Below are positions 15,673 to 17,448 of a stretch of DNA of 64,000 nt, one piece after another; the first letter of the stretch is position 1; every line of letters starts with the position of its first letter. Below the pieces are notes generated by a model, which worked only from the letters and a program-made list of their open reading frames with translations, had not been told where the DNA came from and did not search any database. The stretch lies in sequence record PV067732.1. One strand, given 5' to 3'. The position numbers and the translations under genes are program-made. Origin of the DNA: Acinetobacter phage vB_AbaS-Bhz15.

Positions 15673-15674
15673 AT

Positions 15675-15704
15675 GTTTACTTTTGATAGGACTATTGTTA
15701 TAAT
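15675..15704 (+). promoter_or_regulatory. early promoter GTTTAC-18 nt-TATAAT with GATAGGACT/AGTCCTATC inverted repeat (PeSL-like), immediately after the 43A stop
   Basis: Sequence motif. Confidence 0.55.
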
Positions 15705-15732
15705 AGTCCTATCAACTACAGAGAAGTATATT

Positions 15733-16023
15733 ATGATCACTCAATCTAAATTAGCATTTAACACAGCAGCTCCAGTAATTGACACTCGTTCTACTCGTTC
15801 AATGGATGCAAAAATTACATTAGGCATTCTTGCTCTAGAATTTAAAGGCAGCAATATTAAATTAGTAATTGATCCACGTGATCGTGAAACAAATAAACAA
15901 AAGGTAGTTGAAATTGAACGTATTGTTCATCGTTTCCAAGATACTAAAATCACTGAAGAAAATCTTAAAGCTCTGACAAATGAAATTCTTCCGATCGCAG
16001 TAACAATGTATAGTATCGTTTAA
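15733..16023 (+). CDS. hypothetical protein (96 aa) within the gene-43 intervening cassette
   Basis: ORF with an ATG after the promoter. The ORF-track start at 15673 would include the promoter itself. Confidence 0.45.
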   Translation: MITQSKLAFNTAAPVIDTRSTRSMDAKITLGILALEFKGSNIKLVIDPRDRETNKQKVVEIERIVHRFQDTKITEENLKALTNEILPIAVTMYSIV

Positions 16024-16040
16024 AACTTATATCTTTCATA

Positions 16041-16066
16041 AGGGACTTCGGTCCCTTTCTTTTTCT
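16041..16066 (+). terminator. terminator AGGGAC-TTCG-GTCCCT plus a T-tract
   Basis: GC hairpin with a TTCG loop followed by TTCTTTTTCTC. Confidence 0.55.
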
Positions 16067-16075
16067 CTAAAATTT

Positions 16076-16105
16076 GTTTACTTTGCTTTTTGATTATGAT
16101 ATAAT
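16076..16105 (+). promoter_or_regulatory. early promoter GTTTAC-18 nt-TATAAT
   Basis: Sequence motif 27 nt upstream of the 16133 ATG. Confidence 0.5.
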
Positions 16106-16132
16106 CATTCTTATAAATCAGAGGAATTCATT

Positions 16133-16357
16133 ATGACATATGAAATGATTAAAGAAATAGTAGAAAAATTTCCTTGTGAAATCATAACACCAGGTGTTCG
16201 CAGCGATTGTGTACCTAGAGTAAATATAGATCATAATACATTGGTTCAAATTAAATCTCGGAACACGCAGAGTGAAAAGGATATGGCGTTTATGACTGCC
16301 ACCGAAGTTTTAGAATATAAATCAATGTGTATAAAGGAACTATACGATAAAAATTAA
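16133..16357 (+). CDS. hypothetical protein (74 aa) within the gene-43 intervening cassette
   Basis: ORF with RBS GAGGAATTCATT before the ATG. Confidence 0.45.
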   Translation: MTYEMIKEIVEKFPCEIITPGVRSDCVPRVNIDHNTLVQIKSRNTQSEKDMAFMTATEVLEYKSMCIKELYDKN

Positions 16358-16395
16358 GTGTCTATTAATTAATCTACATTCGTAAAGCACACACA

Positions 16396-16505
16396 TGCTT
16401 TACGAATTTTTTGTGTTATAATGGTTCTACCGGTTCACCGCTCTAAATTTAGCCGTTCCGTTGGACTAGAATAGCTGCTGCGCAGCCGGCGCTTCGCGCC
16501 GAAAT
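16396..16505 (+). repeat. copy 1 of a conserved structured element: MotA-box-like TGCTTTA, 14 nt, TATAAT, then a GC-rich palindromic segment with a 20-nt variable core
   Basis: Near-identical to the reverse complement of 52277..52386 apart from the central 20 nt. It lies downstream of the hairpin CGTAAAGC..GCTTTACG. Confidence 0.6.
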
Positions 16506-16526
16506 CTGAATATTGTCGAGTATGAT

Positions 16527-16841
16527 ATGAATATTGAAAGAGATGTAATAATCACTCCTGAAGGAGAAACATTTATTAATGTGTGGCCATTAAGTGCAAT
16601 TCATTATAATGGTACTTGTAATGCTGAACTATCCGCTGAATTTATTCATAAAGCATTGAAATTTAAAGATGGTGAAGATATAATTTCATTTATAAATGAT
16701 TTTGTTACTAATGGATTGAATAGTATTATTGGCTTGCCAAATACTCCTTCAACTATATATGATATTATGAATATTTTTGAAATGGCTTCTCGTGAGTGTG
16801 AAGCTAGATTTCCTGAATTTAGACTGGTGTTAAATAAATGA
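16527..16841 (+). CDS. hypothetical protein (104 aa)
   Basis: ORF lying immediately downstream of the structured element. Confidence 0.45.
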   Translation: MNIERDVIITPEGETFINVWPLSAIHYNGTCNAELSAEFIHKALKFKDGEDIISFINDFVTNGLNSIIGLPNTPSTIYDIMNIFEMASRECEARFPEFRLVLNK

Positions 16842-17155
16842 GAGTATATAAATCCATTGAAGAGTTTGATGAAATTCAAGGTTGTCAAACAACATTATTT
16901 ACTATAGGCGAAATTGATGAAAAGTTCCACCTTTCATGGATGCCTAATGTCCTTGAAGCCATCACATTGCCTCGCTATTCAGGATATTTTAATACATTTG
17001 ACATGTGCCGTAAAAATGTAGAAACTGTGCTCAATGCACGCTGCTCCAGCCAATCAGATATTAATACAGTCATACAGTTAATGAATGAATCTGTTCGCAA
17101 AGAATTGGAAATAAATCGTTTATTATTTCAATGTTTTAGGGAGATAGGCCTATGA
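16838..17155 (+). CDS. hypothetical protein (105 aa)
   Basis: ORF with an ATGA overlap to the upstream gene. Confidence 0.45.
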   Translation: MRVYKSIEEFDEIQGCQTTLFTIGEIDEKFHLSWMPNVLEAITLPRYSGYFNTFDMCRKNVETVLNARCSSQSDINTVIQLMNESVRKELEINRLLFQCFREIGL

Positions 17156-17349
17156 ATATTTTTAGTCAAATTCGTATTGCTAATGAGAATGCAGAAAATT
17201 TTTCTGAAACTGCTGCATTATGGTATCGGGTTGTTGTAGGTGTAGGTATATGCATTCCATTGTTGTTTATTGTTGGGTTCATTACCGGTGCATTGATGTT
17301 CAAGAATCCTCTAGCTGCAGGTTCTGAGCTTGTCAACGCAATGTTCTAA
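17152..17349 (+). CDS. small membrane protein (65 aa)
   Basis: ORF with hydrophobic segment VVGVGICIPLLFIVGFITGALMF and an ATGA overlap. Confidence 0.4.
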   Translation: MNIFSQIRIANENAENFSETAALWYRVVVGVGICIPLLFIVGFITGALMFKNPLAAGSELVNAMF

Positions 17350-17448
17350 TTAGTGTTACAACTTAGTTACCACTAAGCTTATATCAGGGATATGATAAAA
17401 TGTTATCATATCCCATTTGAGTCAATAAACCCTATCTTTGGAGATTAT

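Follow-up and report, generated by a model that had tools for sequence, protein, structure and literature searches.

Bicistronic versions of the DNA polymerase gene 43 have been described in several T4-like phages. According to passages of PMC3061061, the published splits are located in the fingers domain of gp43, and the two ORFs lie as little as 2 bp apart in an Aeromonas phage and up to 3 kb apart in an Acinetobacter phage; for the bicistronic gp43 of Acinetobacter phages, these passages cite Petrov et al. 2006 and 2010. In the Aeromonas salmonicida phages 44RR, 25 and 31, gene 43 is split at the fingertip into two cistrons with a short untranslated spacer; phage 25 has, in addition, a homing endonuclease gene of the seg type, and its 43B contains a group I intron (Petrov, Ratnayaka and Karam 2010, as cited in passages of PMC2988022 and PMC3061061). 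The two products of phage 25 co-purify and display polymerase activity, as stated in part of PMC2988022.

Other family-B polymerases are also assembled from two non-covalent fragments, as described in passages of PMC3061061: Pfu polymerase, artificially split near the fingertip with coupled termination and reinitiation, is fully active, and Methanobacterium thermoautotrophicum PolB is split in the palm domain, with its genes 85 kb apart. More generally, essential enzyme genes divided into two cistrons whose products reassemble are exemplified, in part of PMC2988022, by T4 gene 39/60 (mobA) and Aeh1 nrdA (mobE), both of which hold a recognisable homing endonuclease gene at the split.

We analysed the gene 43 locus in a 64,000-nt stretch of Acinetobacter phage vB_AbaS-Bhz15 (PV067732.1), hereafter the window, where a 1776-bp insert lies between 43A and 43B. 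Across the whole 4.5-kb region of the locus, identity to the window reaches 99.2% in AB-Navy71 and 98.8% in Maestro. In all, 58 Acinetobacter phage records match this stretch, and ten records carry at least 80% of it. The window, from an Acinetobacter baumannii phage of the genus Hadassahvirus, is in essence one more strain of the group of T4-like Acinetobacter phages with a 43A/43B pair. The split is not a product of misassembly, as it recurs in dozens of phages that were sequenced independently. GenBank records of relatives label it '43A/43B' or 'split DNA polymerase'. The split polymerase of T4-like Acinetobacter phages, many of which are phage-therapy candidates, is thus already described and annotated, and its presence here confirms a published feature. 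Our search of the literature retrieved no experiments on the polymerase of this or any other Acinetobacter phage. We consider it very probable that the locus encodes a natural two-cistron, T4-type family-B polymerase split at the fingertip, with separately translated halves and a hyperplastic cargo between them.

Break point and polymerase halves

The two cistrons and the translation start of the second are as follows.

14164..15672, + strand: gene 43A, 502 aa, C-terminus ...AELIKKLIK, TAA stop (ORF list)
17440..17443, + strand: ribosome-binding site GGAG of 43B, 5 nt ahead of the ATG (sequence)
17449..18621, + strand: gene 43B, 390 aa, ATG at 17449 (ORF list)

43A aligned end to end with residues 1–500 of T4 gp43 (E 6e-206), as proposed in a preliminary description of this DNA, which placed the split at about T4 residue 500; it also aligned with RB69 gp43 over residues 1–502, and matched the Pfam families DNA_pol_B_exo1 and DNA_pol_B. 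43B aligned with T4 residues 519–897 and RB69 residues 515–903 (E about 1e-160). 43A comprises the N-terminal and exonuclease parts, the first parts of the palm and the first fingers helix, with Exo I (CDIEV) and motif A (DVTSLYPS), while 43B comprises the second fingers helix, the remaining palm and the thumb, with motif B (KLLINSLYG) and motif C (YGDTDS). Together, the two translations preserve every catalytic motif.

The fingers domain of RB69 gp43 spans about residues 469–572. Since 43A ends at T4 residue 500 and 43B takes up again at residue 519 (515 in RB69), the break falls at the polymerase fingertip, between RB69 residues 502 and 515. The match by which homology had been said to resume holds: residue 5 of 43B (FSRDF) pairs with T4 residue 519 (FSDDF), and residue 2 with RB69 residue 515. 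However, the gap of 'a few residues' was slightly too low, as the ends of the two alignments leave about 12–18 fingertip residues missing or unaligned. The GGAG and ATG of 43B, already singled out as a restart signal, argue for separate translation of the halves.

We propose that the fingertip was broken once, in an ancestor, and that this break became fixed in all lineages examined. The halves would associate non-covalently, each providing one long fingers helix and part of the palm, without any splicing step at the RNA or protein level; this mode of assembly is suggested by analogy with the split gp43 of Aeromonas phages and the engineered split Pfu polymerase.

We regard it as extremely improbable that the halves are reunited into one polypeptide, be it through intron or intein splicing or through translational bypass, or that the split arose from errors in sequencing or assembly. 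The GenBank records of Maestro and its siblings do give the polymerase as a single joined CDS across the insert. However, 43A stops at an in-frame TAA, three bases before the start of early promoter 1 (see below), 43B has translation signals of its own, and the same structure is found in all those independently sequenced phages. A search of positions 13000–20000 against Rfam at E<=1 returned no intron or other family except three weak sRNA matches located elsewhere, and Pfam likewise gave no intein or HINT match. Nor does the junction contain extra residues able to form a split intein: T4 homology reaches the last residues of 43A and begins at residue 2–5 of 43B, which leaves no room for one. 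As to bypass, we know of no precedent over 1.8 kb. The spliced-style annotation of a joined 43A–43B CDS in several GenBank records is unsupported by the sequence.

The window shares its break point with PhT2 (same genus), Kimel, AB1I1M-1 and Acj61, and also with metagenomic relatives, and 43A and 43B are always 502 and 390 aa long in the lineages examined. Indeed, the 43A/43B pairs of phages 133, Acj61, ZZ1, PhT2, Kimel and KARL-1 have the same break, lengths and orientation. The flanking genes (regA ... 43A ... 43B) are also alike, ORF1, ORF4 and ORF5 of the insert (see below) are orthologous, and the only difference lies in the size and content of the cargo. The insert measures 1776 bp in the window, 2006 bp in Kimel, 2147 bp in PhT2, 3012 bp in AB1I1M-1 and 3987 bp in Acj61. 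Among relatives, a comparison suggested in the preliminary description, the insert varies in both size and ORF content around a fixed break point. The cargo cannot be called 'distinctive', as it had been, since it is common to all T4-like Acinetobacter phages examined; the related lineages checked carry a larger one (2.0–4.0 kb, 6–11 ORFs), and the window has the smallest version. Note that the window lacks the 53–55 aa ORF abutting 43B in Kimel, AB1I1M-1 and Acj61, and the 113-aa ORF of PhT2.

Small ORFs of the insert

The insert contains two early promoters, two terminators, five ORFs and one copy of a repeated promoter–leader module, in DNA of unremarkable base composition (GC 0.30–0.37). 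The five ORFs, with the sizes reported before, were all recovered in the ORF list, with which the earlier ORFs and coordinates agree.

15733..16023, + strand: ORF1, 96 aa, phrog_21960 (family of unknown function)
16133..16357, + strand: ORF2, 74 aa, dN/dS 0.19–0.30
16527..16841, + strand: ORF3, 104 aa (ORF list)
16838..17155, + strand: ORF4, 105 aa, phrog_26620
17152..17349, + strand: ORF5, 65 aa, phrog_24434, predicted small membrane protein

The dN/dS values, which range from 0.15 to 0.30, indicate that the insert ORFs are genuine genes. ORF1 (dN/dS 0.15) lies directly 3' of the 43A stop in 9/9 contexts examined (the window, PhT2, Kimel, AB1I1M-1, Acj61 and four metagenomic contigs). When 1.84 billion proteins were searched with a profile, only 25 representatives of its family were retrieved, all of 72–116 aa. 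This small family is confined to T4-like phages of the Acinetobacter type and to metagenomic contigs that match them; the alignment has 37 invariant columns. The AlphaFold2 model of ORF1 (pLDDT 75) yielded no informative fold match and no nuclease-like fold, the matches including uncharacterised proteins of phages Acj9 and 133. ORF4 (dN/dS 0.18–0.19) is present in all lineages checked, including a contig devoid of ORF2 and ORF3, and is conserved out to Acj61 (42%) and metagenomic relatives; its AlphaFold2 model (pLDDT 49) was unusable and was discarded. ORF5 is conserved out to Acj61 (38%), and its counterpart in Maestro is annotated as a predicted transmembrane protein. ORF2 is 44% identical to the PhT2 ORF at the same position, between flanks that are about 100% identical, and ORF3 evolves fast (27% identity with the Kimel ORF). 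The retention of ORF1 and ORF4 after 43A in all lineages checked, under purifying selection, is a new detail.

When the five ORFs, the minus-strand ORFs and longer ORF versions were searched with Pfam, PHROGs, NCBIfam and PADLOC, the sole matches were to PHROG families without an assigned function. GIY-YIG, HNH, LAGLIDADG, intein and HINT families gave no match on either strand with these four HMM libraries, in keeping with the earlier statement that the insert has no recognisable homing endonuclease or intein. The locus therefore differs from its Aeromonas counterparts in carrying five small ORFs with promoters and terminators, and neither a homing endonuclease gene nor an intron, and from T4 39/60 and Aeh1 nrdA in the lack of a homing endonuclease gene. 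ARAGORN detected no tRNA or tmRNA in the window.

How the split arose and whether the ORFs take part in polymerase function each admit a reading other than that of a natural split with exchangeable cargo. The split could go back to a free-standing homing endonuclease gene or comparable mobile element that is now gone or too degraded to recognise, the ORFs being later arrivals. Such insertions split T4 gene 39/60 and Aeh1 nrdA, and in Aeromonas phage 25 the divided gene 43 includes a seg gene (both in passages of PMC2988022); the fingertip is an insertion hot spot according to Petrov et al., as cited in part of PMC3061061, and homing endonuclease genes occur elsewhere in these Acinetobacter phage genomes. 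Yet neither a nuclease domain nor a trace of one emerged from the searches of both strands with the four HMM libraries, the ORF1 model does not resemble a nuclease, and phage 44RR, as described in part of PMC2988022, has a split with only a short untranslated spacer. We regard this origin as improbable, although the claim is a historical one that present sequences may not settle.

The second reading, that the split polymerase works together with ORF1 and ORF4, and perhaps ORF5, for instance as assembly factors or as a substitute for the missing fingertip, would account for the position of ORF1 in the nine contexts, its small family with many invariant columns and its fold matches in Acj9 and 133, for the persistence of ORF4 even where ORF2 and ORF3 are missing, and for the dN/dS of both (0.15–0.19) despite a recombination hot spot. 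But the split gp43 of Aeromonas phages functions without ORFs of this kind, its cistrons being separated by just a short untranslated spacer (per part of PMC2988022), split Pfu needs no helper (per part of PMC3061061), no fold or family match ties ORF1, ORF4 or ORF5 to DNA or to a polymerase, and the linkage of ORF1 and ORF4 may reflect merely common descent. A partnership thus appears decidedly improbable. As invariant companions of the split, ORF1 and ORF4 are nevertheless cheap targets for deletion or pull-down.

The strict retention of these two ORFs beside 43A, in an otherwise fluid region, is not fully explained by the term 'passive cargo'.

Promoters, terminators and cassette edges

Five signals were located in the insert in addition to the module.

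15675..15714, + strand: early promoter 1, PeSL-like, TTTACT-N17-TATAAT within the inverted repeat GATAGGACTA..TAGTCCTATC (repeat family and promoter scan)
16040..16067, + strand: intrinsic terminator T1, AAGGGACTTCGGTCCCTT followed by a T-run (terminator scan)
16076..16115, + strand: early promoter 2, PeSL-family (repeat family and promoter scan)
16378..16407, + strand: stem–loop/terminator T2 (terminator scan)
17387..17414, + strand: hairpin GGGATATGATAA-AATG-TTATCATATCCC, 25 nt upstream of the 43B ribosome-binding site (sequence)

Both PeSL-type early promoters of the preliminary description were found at their sites, the first one beginning 3 nt past the 43A stop codon. Their promoter-like TTTACT-N17-TATAAT motifs start at 15676 and 16077, and both belong to a direct-repeat family with 19 copies in the window. 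It is this repeat family, and not the promoter scan, that supports them, as sigma-70-like scan matches in the region (29) were not above the shuffled expectation (25.6). The terminator reported near 16041 was recovered by the scan as T1, together with T2, which had no separate entry before. The 3' arm of T2 contains the MotA-box-like ATGCTTTA (16395–16402), a PmSL-like arrangement (cf. PMC4122927). The hairpin at 17387..17414, annotated 'terminator' in Maestro, is a predicted weak terminator or attenuator; it was missed by the scan because of its poor T-run.

Comparison with PhT2 revealed where the insert has been exchanged. Identity is 100% up to 16075, falls to 28–80% over the ORF2 cassette, returns to 96–100% at 16375–16525 (stem–loop T2 through the start of ORF3), varies between 52 and 96% from the start of ORF3 to about codon 100 of 43B and is about 100% afterwards. 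The breaks in identity thus lie at 16075 (early promoter 2, the left edge of the exchanged ORF2 cassette), 16375 (stem–loop T2) and 16525 (end of the module). This coincidence of cassette boundaries with predicted promoters and stem–loops, as in PeSL-type shuffling, is a new detail.

The PeSL and PmSL cassettes of T4-like phages (PMC2839356, Arbiol et al. 2010; PMC4122927, Comeau et al. 2014) similarly consist of repeated early promoters (TTTAC-N17-TATAAT) with stem–loops, a Mot-box variant also existing, and sit at the edges of exchanged ORF modules in hyperplastic regions. Neither paper mentions Acinetobacter phages or gene 43, and the module at 16392–16510 differs in adding a conserved leader of 55–85 nt past the promoter. 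The region between the polymerase halves behaves as hyperplastic, with small early and middle genes arranged in promoter–ORF–terminator cassettes that are swapped between phages by recombination at promoter or stem–loop edges (PeSL/PmSL-type shuffling). From consensus matches only, we infer the transcription units: 43B would most likely be transcribed by readthrough and from a MotA-box-like, extended −10 promoter (16395–16422) heading ORF3–ORF4–ORF5–43B.

The repeated promoter–leader module

The element that contains this promoter is repeated elsewhere in the genome, and two of its copies are detailed here.

16392..16510, + strand: module copy 1, MotA-box-like site and extended −10 TGTTATAAT (hexamer 16417–16422)
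52217..52393, − strand: orphan unit of module copy 2, −10 at 52365–52360 (repeat comparison)

Downstream of the promoter, copy 1 has about 85 nt, presumably transcribed, with two small GC hairpins; the module core is ACCGGTTCACCGCTC, followed by an AT-rich and then a G/A-rich segment. Copy 2 (52393–52275, − strand) is 88.6% identical to copy 1 over 114 nt. Its unit consists of promoter, module, short spacer and terminator (52236–52217) in that order, without an ORF, and is also conserved in Kimel. In T4 middle promoters, the MotA box is about 11–13 nt from the −10. Here, copies 1, 2 and 4 have ATGCTTTA at 14 nt ahead of TATAAT, one above the usual spacing, and copies 3 and 5 have no Mot box. 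We take copy 1 to be a likely middle promoter for ORF3, ORF4, ORF5 and 43B.

The module of Ac42 coincides exactly with the promoter and 5'UTR of uvsY, and PhT2, AB1I1M-1 and Acj61 hold a copy downstream of gene 25. The dispersed copies run from the promoter to a remnant of the uvsY start (ATGAT[T/A]TAG). Copies evolve in concert within a genome, the AB1I1 lineage having a different sequence at the same sites. Judging from these comparisons, promoter and leader of uvsY exist in five dispersed copies, among them the module at 16392–16510 (six places in the AB1I1 sister lineage), and the ancestral copy is the one that follows gene 25.

The resemblance to T4 oriF, whose minimal form of about 100 bp consists of the MotA-dependent uvsY promoter and a downstream unwinding element (PMC3016281), raises the possibility that the module copies are oriF-type R-loop origins, five or six per phage and one of them inside the split polymerase gene, with the module transcript forming an R-loop that would prime leading-strand synthesis. 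This function is speculative, and we consider it rather unlikely. T4 oriF is annotated at codon 2–3 of uvsY, between genes 25 and uvsY; the Ac42 module corresponds to the uvsY promoter and 5'UTR, the copies of PhT2, AB1I1M-1 and Acj61 sit at this very site, and the ancestral copy has a MotA-box-like promoter and a size of about 100–120 bp, the span from promoter to uvsY-start remnant being roughly that of the minimal origin. Also consistent with an origin are the copy in the 34–rnh intergenic region, in the same direction as the T4 oriG primer RNA, the existence of two orphan promoter–module–terminator units without an ORF, the concerted evolution of the copies, including the different sequence at six places in the AB1I1 lineage, the 100% identity of the module to PhT2 between diverged flanks and the presence of motA and asiA in PhT2. 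However, T4 has a single such sequence and its origins share no common motif, whereas the candidate here comes in five or six concertedly evolving copies, and exact synteny with a T4 origin is found at only one of the five module positions (oriF). T4 oriG lies 2.1 kb inside gene 34 and is not intergenic, a near match only; oriE is about 3 kb from the gene 2–3 copy and in the opposite direction, hence no match; the three T4 regions examined hold no rep_origin beyond oriE, oriF and oriG; and a review locates oriA near soc and oriC near rI.-1, not at gene 43. Furthermore, the module is A+T-rich only in a central stretch of about 15 nt, flanked by GC-rich segments. R-loop formation in T4 requires no specific sequence (PMC3016281), so the sequence conservation of the module is not predicted by an origin model, and a plain mobile promoter–leader cassette accounts for the same data. 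The broader idea that all five copies match T4 origins was rejected on the T4 rep_origin annotations, which agree exactly only at oriF.

The experiments that define T4 oriF are R-loop persistence and autonomous replication of origin plasmids (PMC3016281); the literature searched contained no mapped origin for T4-like Acinetobacter phages. If the origin reading were true, this would be a T4-like phage with sequence-defined, multi-copy origins, one within the split polymerase gene. The multi-copy uvsY-promoter module provides testable candidates for replication origins or for a new family of small transcripts.

The module had been described as a conserved RNA-like element. It is indeed repeated and associated with a promoter, but no structure signal was obtained: Rfam gave no match, RNAalifold found zero consensus pairs among 8 diverse copies, and fold z-scores were −0.25 for the single sequence and between −1.1 and +1.7 over 10 copies. 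It is better described as a predicted promoter with a conserved leader that has no demonstrable RNA structure. Two further identities, considered by eye, were rejected, namely a type I-F CRISPR repeat, as there is no repeat hairpin and the AB1I1 variant shows no similarity, and a mimic of the 3' end of 16S rRNA (10/14 matches, not significant). A pattern scan of IMG/VR retrieved only 4 loci and added little. By eye, and without statistical support, a C-rich arm and a G-rich arm could pair in several lineages.

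Position and conservation of the break in gene 43

The DNA polymerase gene 43 is split into two cistrons, 43A and 43B, separated by an insert with five small ORFs (ORF1-ORF5), all seven ORFs having the same orientation:

14164-15672: 43A, 502 aa
15733-16023: ORF1, 96 aa
16133-16357: ORF2, 74 aa
16527-16841: ORF3, 104 aa
16838-17155: ORF4, 105 aa
17152-17349: ORF5, 65 aa
17449-18621: 43B, 390 aa

Alignment to T4 gp43, as proposed in the preliminary description, places 43A on residues 1-500 and 43B on residues 519-897; the corresponding RB69 gp43 residues are 1-502 and 515-903 (E about 1e-200 for 43A and 1e-160 for 43B). 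According to these alignments, the sequence removed or replaced at the break is confined to the fingertip of the polymerase and amounts to only about 12-18 residues. Exo I and motif A are located in 43A and motifs B and C in 43B. 43A ends with a TAA codon, three bases upstream from the start of an early-type promoter, and the 43B ATG is preceded by GGAG, five bases upstream. Coordinates, alignments, TAA and GGAG all agree with the split, the insert ORFs and the separate 43B start as first described.

The 4.5-kb region is matched by 58 Acinetobacter phage records, with 99.2% identity for AB-Navy71 and 98.8% for Maestro (Straboviridae, Twarogvirinae, Hadassahvirus). The break point is the same in the window and in four other lineages (Kimel, PhT2, AB1I1M-1 and Acj61): 43A is 502 aa long and terminates with ...KKL[I/L/R]K before the stop codon, and 43B starts with M[N/K/Q][L/I]DF[S/G]RD and is 390 aa long, a length counted where the locus holds the entire gene (the Acj61 locus ends within 43B). 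More distant 43A genes on metagenomic contigs end at the same position. Because an identical break recurs across lineages and metagenomic contigs, an assembly artefact is excluded and a single ancestral split of gene 43 is indicated. With the break point constant, variation among the five lineages is confined to insert length: 1776 bp in the window, 2006 bp in Kimel, 2147 bp in PhT2, 3012 bp in AB1I1M-1 and 3987 bp in Acj61. The cargo had been called distinctive; the window insert is instead the smallest among the five lineages compared, a minimal version of a family-wide arrangement.

The split, although correctly described, is a feature already known and annotated: GenBank labels in relatives read 'split DNA polymerase gp43A/43B' or '43A'/'43B', and the ZZ1 genome paper reports a split gene 43 in that phage. 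Passages of a 2010 Nucleic Acids Research paper citing Petrov et al. 2006 and 2010 place gp43 splits in the fingers domain and give the sub-family with such splits as 133/44R/31/25/65, the distance between the two gp43 ORFs ranging from 2 bp in an Aeromonas phage to 3 kb in an Acinetobacter phage (PMC3061061); Pfu polymerase split near the fingertip retains full activity (PMC3061061). According to a Virology Journal review of mobile elements (PMC2988022), Aeromonas phage 25 makes split 43A and 43B proteins that co-purify and have polymerase activity, and the 43A/43B spacer of phage 44RR is only a short untranslated stretch.

As to splicing, Rfam returned no intron across 13-20 kb, even at E<=1, and ORFs of either strand matched no nuclease, intein or defence family in Pfam, PHROGs, NCBIfam or PADLOC. 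The T4/RB69 alignments leave no spare sequence at the 43A/43B junction for a split intein. The earlier statement that the insert carries no recognisable homing endonuclease or intein holds for these four libraries and for the junction. Because of the stop codon, the separate 43B ribosome-binding site and the lack of any intron or intein signal, a joined CDS of the spliced type is unsupported by the sequence, and the annotation is misleading. A joined single polymerase CDS across the 1.8-kb insert is given for Maestro MT949699 (positions 1501-5958 of its locus, L001), Minot, Mokit, Melin, Morttis and AB-Navy71; other GenBank records give two CDSs instead. We regard these annotations, the ORF1/ORF4 pair, the precise cassette boundaries and the multi-copy uvsY-promoter module as modest leads, not discoveries.

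Small ORFs and cassette boundaries of the insert

Judging from sequence comparison, the insert ORFs are real genes. Their dN/dS ratios are 0.15 (ORF1), 0.19-0.30 (ORF2), 0.23 (ORF3; versus PhT2), 0.18-0.19 (ORF4) and 0.17 (ORF5). Orthologues of ORF1, ORF4 and ORF5 reach Acj61 (57, 42 and 38% identity, respectively); ORF3 evolves fast, and ORF2 is only 44% identical to its PhT2 counterpart. In a profile search among 1.84 billion proteins, the ORF1 family had only 25 representatives. Both distant members that were placed directly follow a 43A stop codon, and one is then followed by an ORF4 homologue, without ORF2 or ORF3, which marks ORF1 and ORF4 as the invariant core of the insert. This invariance is compatible both with descent from the first split and with a functional link between these ORFs and the polymerase; we consider such a link quite improbable. 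The predicted structure model of ORF4 was too poor for use.

The cassette order is 43A, early promoter 1, ORF1, terminator T1, early promoter 2, ORF2, stem-loop T2, a Mot-box-like promoter with the promoter-leader module, ORF3, ORF4, ORF5, a hairpin, a ribosome-binding site and 43B.

Identity of the window to PhT2 across the insert
Up to 16075 (start of early promoter 2): 100%
ORF2 cassette: 28-80%
16375-16525 (stem-loop T2 and module): 96-100%
ORF3, ORF4, ORF5 and first ~100 codons of 43B: 52-96%
Beyond the first ~100 codons of 43B: about 100%

The steps in identity are sharp, and those at 16075 and 16375 fall at a promoter and a stem-loop. Such boundaries match those of the modular shuffling model for PeSL and PmSL, the early and middle promoter-stem-loop cassettes of T4-like phages (PMC2839356, PMC4122927).

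Both early promoters of the insert belong to a 19-copy TTTAC-N17-TATAAT family lying within inverted repeats. Their -10 elements are at 15699-15704 and 16100-16105, and transcripts would be expected to start about 7 nt downstream of these and of the -10 of the module promoter (16417-16422). The family (GTTTAC-N17-TATAAT) is dense in the window, with its 19 sites running from 15675 to 63752 and the -10 in the inverted-repeat loop, e.g. GATAAGACTAT..ATAGTCTTATC; a subset has a further ~40-nt leader in common (family D4, 42887-48760). In a three-copy family (14085-14130, 46873-46918 and 48998-49043), TTTTGTGGTATA comes after a terminator hairpin; the copy just upstream of 43A may be its promoter/terminator junction.

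The promoter-leader module and other repeats

In the module, a Mot-box-like ATGCTTTA (16395-16402) and an extended -10 (TGTTATAAT) are accompanied by some 85 transcribed bases that are conserved. Its copies in the window are:

16392-16510: module copy 1, in the gene 43 insert
52393-52275, minus strand: module copy 2, followed by a terminator, no ORF

The preliminary description took the module for a conserved RNA-like element, but tests for a structured RNA gave no support: the fold z-score is -0.25 (no structure signal), those of ten copies range from -1.1 to +1.7, RNAalifold finds no consensus pairs among eight diverse copies, and there is no Rfam match. The element is a dispersed promoter-leader repeat. 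The whole PhT2 genome holds exactly five copies, located in the gene 43 insert (copy 1), the tk.4/srd region (copy 2, an orphan unit), the 34-rnh intergenic region (copy 3), between gene 25 and uvsY.-2 (copy 4) and in the gene 2-3 intergenic region (copy 5, an orphan unit), and the module is present in 51 phage records, nearly all with five places. Evolution of the copies is concerted. The AB1I1 lineage carries a different sequence (ACCCCCTACCCT...) at the gene 43 insert, the 34-rnh site and the gene 25 site, with six places in all, and the Kimel copies 1 and 2 have identical variable cores.

In Ac42, the module pattern is the uvsY promoter and 5'UTR, ending at the uvsY ribosome-binding site and ATG. 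PhT2 copies 4 and 5 retain a remnant, ATGAT[T/A]TAG, at the former start-codon position, and Acj61 has a copy downstream of gene 25 and none in its gene 43 insert. Together, these observations identify the module as a duplicated uvsY promoter-leader. In Ac42, uvsY directly follows gene 25 (L025 1135-1675); in PhT2 (L008 40685-40830, i.e. 90685-90830), the promoter-leader is followed by only a 3-codon remnant, then by uvsY.-2. A tblastn search of the whole PhT2 genome with Ac42 UvsY gave no match; this recombination mediator may have been lost, moved or highly diverged in A. baumannii phages.

The uvsY promoter region of T4 is the replication origin oriF, whose minimal form spans about 100 bp and consists of a MotA promoter and a downstream unwinding element (PMC3016281); the T4 annotation puts oriF at uvsY codon 2-3. 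An origin function of the dispersed module copies is therefore conceivable, and the orphan units lacking an ORF, as well as the recombination-island behaviour of the module, would fit such a role. However, much speaks against it. Exact synteny with a T4 origin holds at the oriF position only: oriG lies within gene 34, 2.1 kb in, whereas oriE is located elsewhere and runs in the opposite direction. Moreover, the A+T-richness of the module is not uniform and T4 R-loops require no specific sequence (PMC3016281). We thus consider oriF-like origins unlikely and retain, by default, a plain mobile promoter-leader cassette of the PmSL type.

The orphan transcription unit at 52217-52393 (minus strand) consists of an extended -10 promoter, the module copy, a spacer of ~60 nt and, shared with the tk.4-like gene, a bidirectional terminator. 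It is kept in Kimel (L026) and could give rise to a ~140-nt small RNA (52353 to 52217). Annotations conflict for the apparent counterparts of the 322-aa ORF at 52595-53563 (plus strand), matched by position and size only: Maestro and PhT2 have 'antisigma factor, homology to T4 srd', whereas Kimel has 'putative HNH endonuclease'.

Several AB1I1/AB2I contigs, along with the start of the 'complete' genome OQ627712.1 (positions 1-74), begin or end near a lineage-specific module copy, mostly no more than about 50-160 nt away, suggesting that this repeat breaks short-read assemblies. Elsewhere in the window, the paired repeats 26258-26349/27439-27530 and 26684-26831/27862-28009 are ~71-72% identical and spaced by about 1180 bp. 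They have the look of a ~1.1-kb gene duplicated in tandem, which would probably correspond to the RB69ORF003c-like paralogues that lie side by side in the PhT2 annotation.
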